IMG/VR virus record: IMGVR_UViG_2531839374_000021
Location: 1 to 15,914 of that record
Length of the DNA stretch: 15,914 bases
Reading direction: 5' to 3' (one strand)
Origin: a virus
Lineage: Duplodnaviria; Heunggongvirae; Uroviricota; Caudoviricetes
The notes below the pieces were generated by a model. It did no database searches and was not told where the DNA came from. It saw nothing but the letters and a program-made list of their open reading frames with translations. Made by a program: the position numbers and the translations under genes. How positions within the stretch are numbered: position 1 is the stretch's first letter; every line of letters starts with the position of its first letter. This document shows, in pieces, positions 1 to 3,819 of this stretch.

Positions 1-529
1 TTCGCTCCTACAGCACCAAATCAGGTCTGGGTGGCGGACCTGACGTATGTTGCCACACAGGAGGGATGGTTGTACCTCGCTGGCATCAAAGATGTTTATA
101 CGTGCGAAATTGTCGGCTACGCCATGGGAGAGCGCATGACAAAAGAGCTGACAGGTAAAGCCCTGTTTATGGCGCTCAGGAGCCAGCGCCCACTTGCCGG
201 GCTAATCCACCACTCTGATCGAGGTTCACAGTACTGCGCATACGATTACCGGGTCATACAGGAGCAGTCTGGTCTGAAAACATCAATGTCGCGTAAAGGT
301 CACTGTTACGACAACGCTCCGATGGAAAGCTTCTGGGGAACGCTGAAAAATGAGAGCCTGAGCCACTATCGTTTTAATAACCGGGATGAAGCCATCTCAG
401 TAATACGGGAATACATTGAGATTTTCTACAATCGTCAGCGTCGTCACTCTCGTCTGGGGAATATCTCCCCGGCAGCCTTCAAGGGAAAAATATCATCAGA
501 TGACTGCTCAAAAAAAGAACAAATGGTAG
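1..529 (+). CDS. IS600-like OrfB transposase (DDE integrase domain), 5'-partial at window edge; likely 1-nt indel near 481
   Basis: The six-frame ORF 31..849 is in frame with nt 1 and reads through the IS end at 554 into flanking DNA with no stop. The +1 frame from 482 gives REKYHQMTAQKKNKW-stop at 527-529, just inside the terminal repeat, which is the usual IS3-family arrangement. Confidence 0.6.
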
Positions 530-554
530 TGTCCGCTATTGCCAGTACACCTCA
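1..554 (+). mobile_element. IS600-like (IS3 family) element, 3' portion with right terminal inverted repeat; 5' part lies before the window
   Basis: Frame 1 from nt 1 encodes an IS3-family integrase core (WVADLTYV..., HSDRGSQY, ESFWGTLKNE = DDE residues). The end ...agtgtccgctattgccagtacacctca (ending 554) is an imperfect inverted copy of the left end seen reversed at 3781-3819 (tgaggtagcctgagtttaacggacact...). Assignment to IS600 is from memory. Confidence 0.75.
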
Positions 555-705
555 CACACCCGGCAGAACGGGGAAGTCATATTCCCCGTTCTGTGTGGTG
601 ACATGGCTGAAAACACTTTTCAGAATCCCTGCACGGTTGTGTATGGAGGTTAGTGTAATGGTTGCGCCGTCCAGCGGTTCCCCCGTGGGCGTTTTAATCA
701 CACCT

Positions 706-1168
706 TTAAGCTGCGGCATCGGGACGCTCCGGCCAGTTGATGGCGTTATATGTGGCTTTATCTGTGATGGTGCTGAAATCCATCGCCTGCAGCGATTTCG
801 CGTAAATACGACAGGCTTTCAGCTTTTCTTTATCTTCGTCGCTGATTAACCCCAGCAGCAGGTCTTCTTCCCATTCCCCTGTCCGGGCACTGACCTGAGC
901 CAGAAGGGCATCACGCTCATCTTCCGCTTTGAGTCTGTAGTCAAAGACAAATTCATCATTGCGGTAAAACCAGTAACCCGGCGCGGTAATGCGGCGGTTG
1001 GCGGTAATATCAGGAACTTCAATAACACTGGCGTTACGGGGTTCAATGCCTGTCACATCCTTACCGACCCACACCACGCGCCCGTCTCCGGTGTAAGCTA
1101 TTTTAATTGTGTCGCTGGCGAAATTCTTCAGTTCTTCATACCAGTTTTTGTCGTCCTCCGAAAAAAGC
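706..1168 (-). pseudogene. Phage tail fiber assembly protein (Tfa family) remnant, 5'-truncated by IS1
   Basis: ORF 706..1182 (-) contains SEDDKNWYEELKNF...VIEVPDITANRR...INWPERP, the hallmark motifs of lambdoid/Mu/e14-type tail fiber assembly proteins. Its first codons (TTG-GCA-GCA-TTA-CC) are the IS1 terminal repeat, so the true N-terminus is missing. Confidence 0.65.
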
Positions 1169-1938
1169 GGTAATGCTGCCAACTTACTGATTTAGTGTAT
1201 GATGGTGATTTTAAGGTGCTTGCGTGGCTTCCATTTCCATCAGATGTCCTTCCTGCTCCGCTACTGAAGGCGTGGTGCGTAACGGCAAAAAGCACTGCCG
1301 GACATCAGCGCTATCTCTGCTCTCATTGCCGTAAAACATGGCAACTACAGTTCACTTACACCGCCTCTCAGCCCGGTACGCACCAGAAAATCATTGATAT
1401 GGCCATGAATGGCGTCGGATGTCGCGCCAGTGCACGCAGTTATGGGCGTTGGCCTCAACACGGTTTTACGTCACTTAAAAAACTCAGGCCGCAGTCGGTA
1501 ACCTCGCGCATACAACCGGGCAGTGATGTGATTGTCTGCGCTGAAATGGACGAACAGTGGGGCTACGTCGGTGCTAAATCACGTCAGCGCTGGCTGTTTT
1601 ACGCGTATGACAGGATACGGAGGACGGTTGTGGCGCACGTCTTCGGTGAACGCACTCTGGCCATACTGGAGCGTCTTCTGAGCCTGCTGTCGGCCTTTGA
1701 GGTCGTGGTATGGATGACGGATGGCTGGCCGCTGTATGAATCACGCCTGAAGGGAAAGCTGCACGTTATCAGCAAGCGTTACACTCAGCGCATTGAGCGA
1801 CATAATCTGAATCTGAGACAACATCTGGCAAGGCTGGGACGGAAGTCACTGTCGTTCTCAAAATCGGTGGAGCTGCATGACAAGGTCATCGGGCATTATC
1901 TGAACATAAAACACTATCAGTAAGTTGGAGTCATTACC
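1169..1938 (+). mobile_element. IS1 (iso-IS1 variant), copy 1
   Basis: Ends ggtaatgctgccaacttactgatttagtg (1169-) and aagttggagtcattacc (-1938), about 770 bp, with insA/insB coding content. 9-bp flanks differ (cgaaaaaagc vs tcggatacc), so no target-site duplication. Confidence 0.9.
1195..1923 (+). pseudogene. IS1 insA-insB' region carrying two single-base insertions relative to copy 2
   Basis: Compared with the reverse complement of copy 2: ggcaaaaagcactgcc here vs ggcaaaagcactgcc (extra A near 1289), and cacgcagttatggg here vs cacgcattatggg (extra G near 1437). The native GTG start at 1237 then stops after about 36 codons; the 242-codon ORF starts from a GTG inside the terminal repeat and runs through insA and insB' frames. 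Confidence 0.6.
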
Positions 1939-2040
1939 TCGGATACCGGCCATAACTCAGCGGATAACGTCAACGGTGTGTATTACCGACCGCTGCAAAA
2001 ACTGATTAATGGCACCTGGTATAACGTAGCGAGTATTTAA
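1939..2040 (+). pseudogene. Orphan 3' end of an unidentified gene, cut by the IS1 right end
   Basis: Open frame continuous from the IS1 junction: ...SDTGHNSADNVNGVYYRPLQKLINGTWYNVASI-stop (TAA 2038-2040). No start codon; the frame runs into IS1. Confidence 0.3.
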
Positions 2041-2260
2041 CAATGTTGCATTTAAAAAATATTACTGCGGGTAATCCGAAAACTGCGGAACAATACCAGA
2101 TGACAAAAAATATGATATTACCTGGCTTTTTTGATATCCCTGACAATCCGTGTCCGGCAGGCGCGCGAAATCTCCACGAAACGGTGTTTGAAGTGGCACA
2201 CTGAATTTGGCCACCTGAACAGAGGTGATATGCTCACCTCAGAACAACACAGGTGCTCCA

Positions 2261-2563
2261 ATGAAAAAAAGAAATTTTAGCGCAGAGTTTAAACGCGAAT
2301 CCGCTCAACTGGTTGTTGACCAGAAATACACGGTGGCAGATGCCGCCAAAGCTATGGATGTTGGCCTTTCCACAATGACAAGATGGGGCAAACAACTGCG
2401 TGATGAGCGTCAGGGCAAAACACCAAAAGCCTCTCCGATAACACCAGAACAAATCGAAATACGTAAGCTGAGGAAAAAGCTACAACGCATTGAAATGGAG
2501 AATGAAATATTAAAAAAGGCTACCGCGCTCTTGATGTCAGACTCCCTGAACTGTTCTCGATAA
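2261..2563 (+). CDS. IS911 OrfA (helix-turn-helix / leucine-zipper transposase subunit)
   Basis: [21 protein letters not shown]...[22 protein letters not shown] at 2261 is preceded by aggtg. The six-frame ORF starts earlier at a GTG (2225), which I reject. Confidence 0.9.
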
Positions 2564-3429
2564 TCGGGAAACTCAGAGCGCATTATCCTGTGGTCACACT
2601 CTGCCAAGTGTTCGGGGTTCATCGCAGCAGCTACAGATACTGGAAAAACCGTCCTGAAAAACCAGACGGCAGACGGGCTGTATTACGCAGTCAGGTACTT
2701 GAGCTACATGGCATCAGCCATGGTTCGGCCGGAGCAAGAAGCATCGCCACAATGGCAACCCGGAGAGGCTACCAGATGGGACGCTGGCTTGCTGGCAGGC
2801 TCATGAAAGAGCTGGGGCTGGTCAGCTGTCAGCAGCCGACTCACCGGTATAAACGTGGTGGTCATGAACATGTTGCCATCCCTAACTACCTTGAAAGGCA
2901 GTTCGCCGTGACCGAGCCAAATCAGGTGTGGTGCGGTGATGTGACCTGTATCTGGACGGGTAAGCGCTGGGCGTACCTCGCCGTTGTTCTCGACCTGTTC
3001 GCAAGAAAACCAGTGGGCTGGGCCATGTCGTTCTCGCCGGACAGCAGGCTCACCATGAAAGCGCTGGAAATGGCATGGGAAACCCGTGGTAAGCCCGGCG
3101 GGGTGATGTTCCACAGCGATCAGGGCAGTCATTATACGAGCAGGCAGTTCCGGCAGTTATTGTGGCGATACCAGATCAGACAGAGTATGAGCCGGCGCGG
3201 AAACTGCTGGGATAACAGCCCAATGGAACGCTTCTTCAGGAGTCTGAAGAACGAATGGATGCCGGTGGTGGGTTACGTAAGCTTCAGCGAGGCAGCTCAC
3301 GCCATAACGGACTATATCGTTGGATATTACAGCGCACTAAGACCGCACGAATATAACGGTGGGTTACCCCCAAACGAATCGGAAAATCGATACTGGAAAA
3401 ACTCTAACTCGGTGGCCAGTTTTTGTTGA
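2518..3429 (+). CDS. IS911 OrfB frame (DDE integrase), expressed as an OrfAB fusion by programmed -1 frameshift
   Basis: Slippery heptamer A-AAA-AAG at 2512-2518. The -1 frame continues [13 protein letters not shown]...CGDVTCIW...HSDQGSHY...[11 protein letters not shown] to the stop at 3427-3429. Confidence 0.85.
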
Positions 3430-3437
3430 CCACTTCA

Positions 3438-3819
3438 TGTCGCCATTGTTCGATTAACGCGTATTTTTCAGCGACTCCTGTGCAAAATACGCTGTTGCTT
3501 TTTTAATATATCTCGCTCAAGGCGAGCTTCATTTAACGCCTTACGCAGTTGCAGAATTTCAGATTCCAGTTCAGCCACCGTGCGGGAACCAGGAGTACCG
3601 AGCCCTTTTCTGGCGGCGGTAACCCATTGTCCTAAAGTGCCTTCAGGAAGGGATAATCGGGAAGCGCCTTCACTGATCGAAAGTTGATTTTCAAGAACCG
3701 TTCTGACAGCTTCGGCTTTGAACTCTTTAGAGTAACGTTGGTTTTTTCTGCTCATTATTAGCTCCTTCTGATGCCATTCTATTTCAGGAAGGAGTGTCCG
3801 TTAAACTCAGGCTACCTCA
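3438..3819 (-). mobile_element. IS600-like element, 5' portion (left repeat plus orfA), interrupted by IS911
   Basis: Reverse complement of 3781-3819 is tgaggtagcctgagtttaacggacactccttcctgaaat (IS3-type TG... end), followed by orfA. The element stops abruptly at the IS911 right end (3437/3438). Confidence 0.75.
3468..3755 (-). CDS. IS600-like OrfA, with aberrant C-terminus
   Basis: MSRKNQRYSKEFKAEAVRTVLENQLSISEGASRLSLPEGTLGQWV... followed by a leucine heptad region and TTAAAAAAG. The tail homologous to IS911's [14 protein letters not shown] (here ATAYFAQESLKNTR) sits in the -1 frame, suggesting a 1-nt deletion at the slippery run. Confidence 0.7.
   Translation of the reverse strand: MSRKNQRYSKEFKAEAVRTVLENQLSISEGASRLSLPEGTLGQWVTAARKGLGTPGSRTVAELESEILQLRKALNEARLERDILKKQQRILHRSR

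Follow-up and report, generated by a model that had tools for sequence, protein, structure and literature searches.

An ordinary accumulation of IS600, IS911, and IS1 joins a defective-prophage tail-fibre region to a truncated yfaA in the Shigella boydii / Shigella flexneri 6 lineage

Data from the literature document that the genomes of Shigella have undergone an expansion of IS1, IS2, IS4, IS600, and IS911, together with IS-mediated deletions and rearrangements (PMC7373316). The locus described here is an instance of that already well-known kind of genome decay: five IS types, interrupted genes (yfaA, yfaL, and prophage tail genes), lost target duplications, and flanks that vary from strain to strain are common to both, and nothing at this locus differs in kind. 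Narrower likenesses can also be drawn. As in those systems where homologous recombination between dispersed copies leaves an IS with hybrid flanks, we found a complete IS911 lying between two unrelated flanks, a given flank having different partners in other strains, with the difference that here the reciprocal product was not recovered and that inversion and deletion are not separable. As in nested ISs—one element within another—IS911 interrupts IS600 at nt 383, and relatives carry an IS2 in IS600 and a 1.3-kb IS3-family element in IS911; but the IS911-in-IS600 nest is here no longer whole, a single IS600 arm being left beside IS911. Finally, the adjacent inversion of the Shapiro type, a product of intramolecular replicative transposition of IS1, shares with this locus a breakpoint at the IS1 terminus, an inverted 8-bp target repeat at both ends, and an inverted segment adjoining the element; whereas canonically the segment ends up between two IS1 copies in inverted orientation, here there is one IS1, and 4 bp have been lost at the other breakpoint.

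The window that we analysed comprises 15,914 nucleotides, corresponding to bases 2–15915 of the draft contig AMGB01000058.1 (window base 1 being contig base 2). At positions 1287, 1439, and 2104 this source assembly differs by single bases from all the relatives, which differences could be sequencing errors. The junctions were compared, as 40-mers, with those of nine other assemblies, three of which are closed chromosomes with the mosaic (S. boydii ATCC 8700, S. boydii ATCC 9210, and S. flexneri 6 64-5500; accessions CP026731, CP011511, and CP026811). The reference for IS600 was the 1264-bp copy reconstructed from CP026731, and that for the intact prophage was taken from an EIEC strain (VL40 L002). 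The following features were delimited:

1–554, plus strand: IS600 copy A, 3' part (nt 712–1264), 99.5% to the reconstructed IS600, cut at base 1 by the contig end
555–719, minus strand: tail fibre 2 gene ("tail fiber N-terminal domain"), first ~165 bp, 98% to EIEC VL40 L002 4001–4165, broken by IS600 copy A
706–1168, minus strand: tfa (tail-fibre assembly), C-terminal part, ending in aaaaaagc (1161–1168), which touches the IS1 left end
1169–1938, plus strand: IS1 copy 1, with the Pfam domains Zn_ribbon_InsA, HTH_Tnp_IS1, and DDE_Tnp_IS1 and no direct target duplication
1939–2132, plus strand: inverted 194-bp prophage segment, with the last 33 codons of tail fibre 1 plus the stop (2038–2040), followed by ~30 codons from the start of tfa (its ATG at 2043)
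2133–2188, minus strand: tail fibre 1 coding sequence, 56 bp, in the original, non-inverted orientation
2189–3437, plus strand: IS911, complete, 1249 bp, 98.5% to annotated IS911, with the Pfam domains HTH_Tnp_1, rve, and rve_3
3438–3819, minus strand: IS600 copy B, 5' part (nt 1–383), 99.5% identity, truncated by IS911
3820–4202, minus strand: yfaA (DUF2138), first 127 codons, stopping at the IS600 left end
10866–11633, minus strand: IS1 copy 2, inverted with respect to copy 1, in yfaL, without duplication, outside the 1–3819 mosaic

The assignments to IS types rest on length, termini, and coding content. IS1 copy 1, of 770 bp in the source draft and 768 bp in the relatives, has the ~768-bp size, the InsA/InsB domains, and the 23-nt terminal inverted arms (1169–1191 and 1916–1938) of its type; IS911 has the ~1250 bp, the terminal repeats, and the orfA (HTH_Tnp_1) and orfB (rve) of its own; and both pieces of IS600 are nearly identical to a 1264-bp element with TG...CA terminal repeats, the matching element being labelled IS600 family in E. 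coli records. The mosaic is an ordinary pile-up of known ISs—IS600, IS911, and IS1—that connects the tail-fibre region of a dead prophage with a truncated yfaA, beside gyrA. Of the nested IS mosaic proposed for positions 1–3819 in a first-pass annotation, the element boundaries and the six junctions are real, while the notion that IS600 was one split element is not.

We regard it as probable that the locus is the fixed scar of several independent IS events in the cluster-1 chromosome of Shigella (the S. boydii / S. flexneri 6 lineage), to which a recombination between IS911 copies and a flip by the IS1 transposase were added. Genomes of both S. boydii and S. flexneri 6 contain the locus, and the six junctions named beforehand were present in all nine other assemblies, the 40-mers being exact except for a single-nucleotide polymorphism at 1952 in the one spanning 1938/1939. 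Queries spanning the junctions returned no record across any of them among 5,426 complete E. coli genomes, EIEC strains included.

At the IS1 the observed arrangement is plain: the element struck tfa at an 8-bp target, and the 194 bp from there to a site within the tail-fibre gene upstream are now inverted at its right end; a second, inverted copy of the 8 bp is present, and 4 bp have been lost. The flanks of copy 1, aaaaaagc on the left and tcggatac on the right, do not form the 8–9-bp direct duplication of IS1, as had been noticed before, and a 9-bp duplication is present at another IS1 copy (L022); the 8-bp partner of the left flank lies in inverted orientation at 2125–2132, where the 194-bp segment ends in gctttttt, the exact reverse complement of 1161–1168, of which sequence the reference prophage contains one copy. 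A further junction, absent from the earlier list, is located at 2132/2133, the stretch 1939–2132 being inverted with respect to both 555–1168 and 2133–2188. In the reference prophages the sequence of 2133–2188 follows directly after that of the inverted segment, past 4 bp (tatc) missing in the window. When the 194 bp are flipped back and the IS1 and one 8-bp copy are removed, an intact Tfa of 181 amino acids results, identical at 168 of its 181 positions to the EIEC protein; and re-adding GATA restores the reading frame of the tail-fibre C-terminus.

Since one breakpoint is exactly at the IS1 terminus and the target repeat is of IS1 size, we propose that the 194-bp flip was an event of the IS1 transposase, whose most likely route would be a replicative intramolecular inversion with a later loss of the second IS1 copy. 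The inverted target duplication and the breakpoint at an IS terminus are those of a replicative inversion, although the second, inverted IS1 at 2133 that a canonical IS1 event of that type predicts was absent in 10 of 10 assemblies (the window plus the nine relatives). That solitary IS1 would be explained, for this sub-event only, by a single conservative "inside-out" flip, in which two ends, the left one of IS1 and a cryptic, IS1-like one at 2133—the candidate sequence being GATATCCCTGACAA—were both cleaved and then attacked the 8-bp target of tfa, a second IS1 never being made. The exact inverted repeat that abuts both the IS1 left end and 2133 accords with such a reaction, as do the few base pairs lost at the old junction, which would be expected for a spacer between back-to-back ends; and 9 of the 14 bases in 2133–2146 agree with the left terminal repeat of IS1, a level reached by only 0.5% of the positions of the window. 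Over the full 23 bp, however, the likeness is weak (9/23), and it was spotted post hoc; in addition, the flip requires a prior IS1 insertion beside the cryptic end that left no trace, and we consider this explanation unlikely. That the single-copy inversion adjacent to IS1 should be the natural footprint of a conservative, non-replicative reaction between one genuine and one cryptic end is a doubtful proposition, and to our knowledge an outcome of that sort lies outside the textbook repertoire of IS1. The replicative route remains our preferred reading, and the footprint itself is a minor mechanistic curiosity.

Several other candidates were rejected. On inspection, a flip by a site-specific invertase of the Gin/Pin type does not fit borders that have no repeat resembling a crossover site and of which one is the IS1 terminus. 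An inversion between the IS1 copies at 1169–1938 and 10866–11633 fails, the flanks of both pairing as target duplications in no combination; beside copy 2, ~0.8 kb of the 5' sequence of yfaL is gone. The IS1 of EIEC VL7S7, for its part, lies in the same tail gene, but 28 bp off, facing the opposite way and bordered by different sequences, so that it represents an independent event and not an intermediate.

With respect to IS911, the flanks gtt and tgt do not constitute the 3-bp direct duplication of that element, a mismatch already pointed out in the first-pass annotation, which was equally right in that the 5' part of IS600 (3438–3819, minus strand; nt 1–383) is cut by IS911 at 3437/3438 and in that 1939–2188 is unrelated to IS600, the latter stretch being prophage tail-fibre and tail-fibre-assembly DNA. 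Among 16 distinct complete IS911 copies sampled from related genomes, five retained the 3-bp duplication and 11 did not, and a given IS911 flank was found with varying partners across strains (GCA/GCA in L025, TGT/GCA in L038, and TGT/TCA in L022). The IS600'-yfaA' flank itself has the phage flank as its partner in 10 assemblies and a yjjI-side flank in L018, and the opposite end of IS911 adjoins the prophage tail-fibre gene. This swapping of flanks among IS911 copies, together with the missing duplications, fits a recombination between copies of the element. We suggest that the chimeric IS911 is the product of homologous recombination, the partners being an IS911 in the IS600 of yfaA and another in the prophage tail-fibre gene, and that the same exchange may have brought the prophage remnant beside IS600'-yfaA'-gyrA, whereby the remainder of yfaA, together with the distal part of IS600, would have been either moved elsewhere or deleted. 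Were the exchange an inversion, the reciprocal product would be an IS911 with ...GGGAAATTGTTGT at the left end and GTTGCTGCC..., the continuation of the tail fibre, at the right end.

That reciprocal junction—sought as IS600 from nt 381/384 onward at the left end of IS911, or as the tail-fibre continuation at its right end—yielded no matches for IS911|IS600 in the species-representative genomes and the JGI metagenomes, where the known junction used as a positive control likewise gave none, the lineage being missing there; and no intermediate structure for the proposed history was found. IS911, a member of the IS3 family, moves by a copy-out-paste-in mechanism through a circle, and its transposition chemistry might instead have made the chimeric element, either in an intramolecular event from the IS600 copy into the prophage gene or through an adjacent deletion. 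An IS911 with one end in IS600, the other in unrelated DNA, and no duplication would suit that alternative, as would a reciprocal copy that is not found, though the search in question is uninformative against recombination because its positive control failed too. Against it stand the shuffling of flanks among many IS911 copies, which is the signature of homologous exchange, and the fact that copy-out-paste-in through a circle does not by itself yield deletions or inversions with one IS; we accordingly judge a purely transpositional origin to be quite improbable and retain homologous recombination.

Concerning yfaA, the gene is broken after 383 nt at 3819/3820, copy B of IS600 sitting at codon 127/128 with only its left end in the window, so that one flank is visible; the truncated product of 131 amino acids is indexed in 138 blocks of a public collection. 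Beyond codon 127, K-12-like contigs (L004) continue as yfaA-yfaT-yfaS-yfaQ-yfaP, whereas this lineage continues as IS600'-IS911-prophage. The distal yfa genes persist in the same genome on a different contig (L035), as yfaP::IS911 with a TAT duplication, yfaQ, and yfaS; and a search with the full-length YfaA for a surviving C-terminal fragment gave, among the matches listed, N-terminally anchored truncations only. The earlier view that successive IS-mediated deletions or inversions replaced the DNA downstream of yfaA holds to the extent that IS-associated rearrangements did replace the yfaT-yfaS-yfaQ-yfaP side, though not by way of a single split IS600.

This last idea, that one IS600 was broken by IS911 and its halves were then separated by an inversion, to lie 3 kb from each other on opposite strands, finds its basis in the opposite orientations of the two pieces, neither of which is complete within the window. 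The pieces, nt 1–383 and nt 712–1264, are nevertheless not complementary halves. The left one does end at 554 with the 3' end of IS600 and does lie on the opposite strand, as had been stated; but it is incomplete because the contig ends inside the element, and not through biology. In the closed relatives copy A is a full IS600, of 1264 bp once an IS2 is removed, with its own left (5') end and a CAC/CAC duplication, the right end of the copy being the only one within the window; its host is the second tail-fibre gene of the defective prophage, the remainder of which gene (PF08400) follows beyond the element. The two pieces hence come from separate copies—an outcome that the first-pass annotation had itself named as fatal to a split—and a single-element origin is most improbable. 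A window that starts at the end of a draft contig within a repeat can in this way mimic a split element. The additional IS2 in copy A, flanked by a TTTGG duplication, was present in all the relatives whose sequence extends that far; a breakpoint shared by IS2 and IS911 in IS600 was considered and rejected, the former lying after nt 419 and the latter after nt 383, as unrelated events.

As to an assembly artefact, in which repeats would have induced chimeric joins in a draft genome, the draft nature of the source contig and its single-base differences from all relatives carry next to no weight beside the recurrence of the junction 40-mers in nine independent assemblies, three of them closed, and the short-read contigs of other samples that terminate precisely at the yfaA|IS600 junction, so that misassembly of the junctions, a concern already raised, is excluded.

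Of little significance beyond bookkeeping, the locus documents, in fixed form, the destruction of yfaA and of a prophage tail module by IS600, IS911, and IS1 in Shigella cluster 1, and the junctions yfaA|IS600, IS600|IS911, IS911|tail fibre, and 2132/2133 could act as markers of the lineage. In sister strains, later insertions of IS2 and of IS66- and IS3-family elements suggest that the process of rearrangement went on.

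The window is identical, without one differing base, to bases 2–15915 of the draft contig AMGB01000058.1 (assembly GCA_000296305.1). Its position 1 is the end of that contig and falls within a repeat, so that the features cut there reflect the assembler's cut and not biology. The layout is as follows.

Features of the window (coordinates, strand, identity; nt, position on the IS600 map)
1–554, plus strand, IS600 nt 712–1264 (copy A)
555–1168, minus strand, prophage DNA
1169–1938, plus strand, IS1 copy 1
1939–2188, mixed, prophage DNA (1939–2132 inverted, 2133–2188 in the original orientation)
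2189–3437, plus strand, IS911 (1249 bp)
3438–3819, minus strand, IS600 nt 1–383 (copy B)
3820–4202, minus strand, first 127 codons of yfaA
beyond 4202, gyrA, ubiG, a decayed yfaL with IS1 copy 2, nrdA and nrdB
10866–11633, inverted relative to IS1 copy 1, IS1 copy 2 within the decayed yfaL

The two IS600 pieces match, at 99.5% identity, a complete 1264-bp element reconstructed from a closed relative, the IS911 agrees at 98.5% with copies annotated in E. coli, and the Pfam domains of the gene calls are consistent with these identities. The draft differs from all the closed relatives by single-base indels—at 1287, 1439 and 2104, plus 1-nt gaps in both IS600 pieces—several of which fall in homopolymer runs and which are probably sequencing errors; moreover, the fused 242-aa ORF at 1195–1923 is an artefact of two surplus bases in IS1 copy 1.

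To examine the junctions, all six of which the first-pass annotation had placed correctly, we fetched further contigs by their encoding the truncated 131-aa YfaA product. The 40-mers across 554/555, 1168/1169, 2132/2133, 2188/2189, 3437/3438 and 3819/3820 were identical in nine further assemblies, which also shared the 1938/1939 junction except for one SNP at 1952, whereas none of the junctions occurred in any complete E. coli genome searched. Three of those nine are closed chromosomes, which papers name as S. boydii ATCC 8700 (CP026731), S. boydii ATCC 9210 (CP011511) and S. flexneri serotype 6 strain 64-5500 (CP026811). The misassembly against which a check had been advised is thus ruled out, and the mosaic is fixed in a Shigella lineage.

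The closed relatives also reveal what lies to the left of window base 1, where the rest of IS600 runs to its left terminal repeat. Copy A contains there an IS2 of 1331 bp after nt 419, with a TTTGG duplication; upon subtraction of the IS2, the copy measures exactly 1264 bp, has CAC on both flanks and divides a single prophage gene, whose product is a 'tail fiber N-terminal domain' protein, all of which identifies it as a simple insertion. The fragment at 3438–3819 is a second copy, inserted in yfaA, and on the IS600 map the two window pieces (nt 1–383 and 712–1264) do not abut. The earlier proposal of one IS600 split into two oppositely oriented pieces is thus contradicted by the very finding—parts from separate copies—that its authors had named as incompatible with it. 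IS600 fragments abut IS911 ends elsewhere as well (at nt 928 in the records L028 and L039 and at about nt 1014 in L033), such chimeras being recurrent in those genomes.

The IS911 itself is complete and, as had been remarked, lacks a matching 3-bp duplication, its flanks being gtt on the tail-fibre side and tgt on the IS600 side; one is retained by just five of the 16 distinct complete IS911 copies that we sampled in related Shigella assemblies. The record L025 has an IS911 site with GCA on both sides, whose right flank is joined in L038 to a putA-side left flank, which flank has still another partner in L022 and L023; likewise, the window's IS600–yfaA flank is joined in L018 to a yjjI-side flank instead of the phage flank. 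This shuffling of partners between strains is the pattern expected from homologous recombination among dispersed IS911 copies, an exchange which would have joined the prophage remnant to the truncated yfaA. The reciprocal junction had no matches in two large pattern-scanned collections, in which the known junction was likewise without matches, the lineage being absent from them. Among the matches listed in a protein search for a C-terminal YfaA fragment, all were truncations anchored at the N-terminus. Elsewhere in the same genome, on a separate contig (L035), distal members of the yfa cluster survive—a yfaP interrupted by IS911 (TAT duplication), yfaQ and yfaS—which points to displacement of at least part of the region and not to its simple deletion. 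Between rcsC and that IS911, the gene calls of L021, L029 and L035 show nothing but a 56-aa fragment from the 3' end of yfaP. The ato operon, which sits between rcsC and yfaP in K-12 and whose atoB adjoins yfaP in the K-12-like record L004, appears to be absent from those three.

The prophage segment at 555–1168 matches prophages of enteroinvasive E. coli at 96–98% identity; on its minus strand lie the beginning of tail-fibre gene 2 and the portion of tfa (a tail-fibre assembly gene) that encodes the C-terminus. In those prophages the DNA adjoining 1168 is that found here at 1939–2132 in the opposite orientation, the two reference alignments overlapping by 8 reference bases, and 2133–2188 matches the next 56 bp in the original orientation, with 4 bp skipped. 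Relative to the intact prophage the order is therefore A-T-[IS1]-inverted(T-B)-C, where T is the 8-bp aaaaaagc at 1161–1168, whose reverse complement stands at 2125–2132; the 2132/2133 junction had previously gone unnoticed. When we flipped the 194 bp back in silico and removed the IS1 and one T, a 181-aa Tfa was obtained (168/181 residues identical to the enteroinvasive E. coli protein), and re-adding GATA restored the C-terminus of tail fibre 1.

One breakpoint of the inversion is exactly the IS1 terminus, and T is as long as the duplications that IS1 makes of its target (another IS1 copy has a 9-bp direct duplication), so that participation of the IS1 transposase is the natural reading, which we infer. 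Canonical intramolecular replicative inversion predicts such an inverted target repeat but also a second, inverted IS1, here at 2133, which copy is absent from all ten assemblies; by that route, the second IS1 plus 13 bp would have been lost after the inversion. A weaker candidate is a one-step conservative reaction that paired the left end of IS1 with a cryptic end: 2133–2146 matches the IS1 terminal repeat at 9 of 14 positions, and 0.5% of window positions attain that level, but the resemblance is slight and was spotted post hoc. The flanks of IS1 copies 1 and 2 do not pair, which excludes an exchange between the two. In the enteroinvasive E. coli VL7S7 an independent IS1 (at about 4598 of the record) interrupts the same tail-fibre gene at a distance of 28 bp from the breakpoint of the inversion, without a duplication and joined to dicB-region DNA; this vicinity is a possible hot spot for IS1.

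Sister strains show that IS insertion is ongoing: they carry a 2.5-kb IS66-family element in the tfa fragment (8-bp duplication, window 1122–1129) and a 1.3-kb IS3-family element within IS911 (about 2445–2450), both sites being empty in the window strain.

In every Shigella species IS1, IS2, IS4, IS600 and IS911 have multiplied to hundreds of copies, and they are known to interrupt genes and to bring about deletions and rearrangements (PMC7373316). The locus is one more instance of that decay, with nothing new except the slightly unusual inversion footprint with a single IS1 copy; the first-pass annotation was thus largely accurate in its observations and in recognising an IS-driven scar, though not in its headline IS600 reading.

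Farther along, IS1 copy 2 lacks a target duplication (flanks AGCCTGCTG and CTTGCGTAG), and the adjoining 5' sequence of yfaL is shorter by about 0.8 kb than in E. coli genomes, the mark of a deletion adjacent to IS1. Besides that truncation, yfaL (7975–10821) is split among at least three ORFs (7975–8427, 8503–10101 and 10174–10821) and is a decayed autotransporter pseudogene. Finally, a pair of inverted repeats of about 84 bp, 90% complementary, lies downstream of ubiG (7870–7953) and between nrdA and nrdB (14646–14728), and contains a GCCTGATGCGACGCT-type REP-like sequence.
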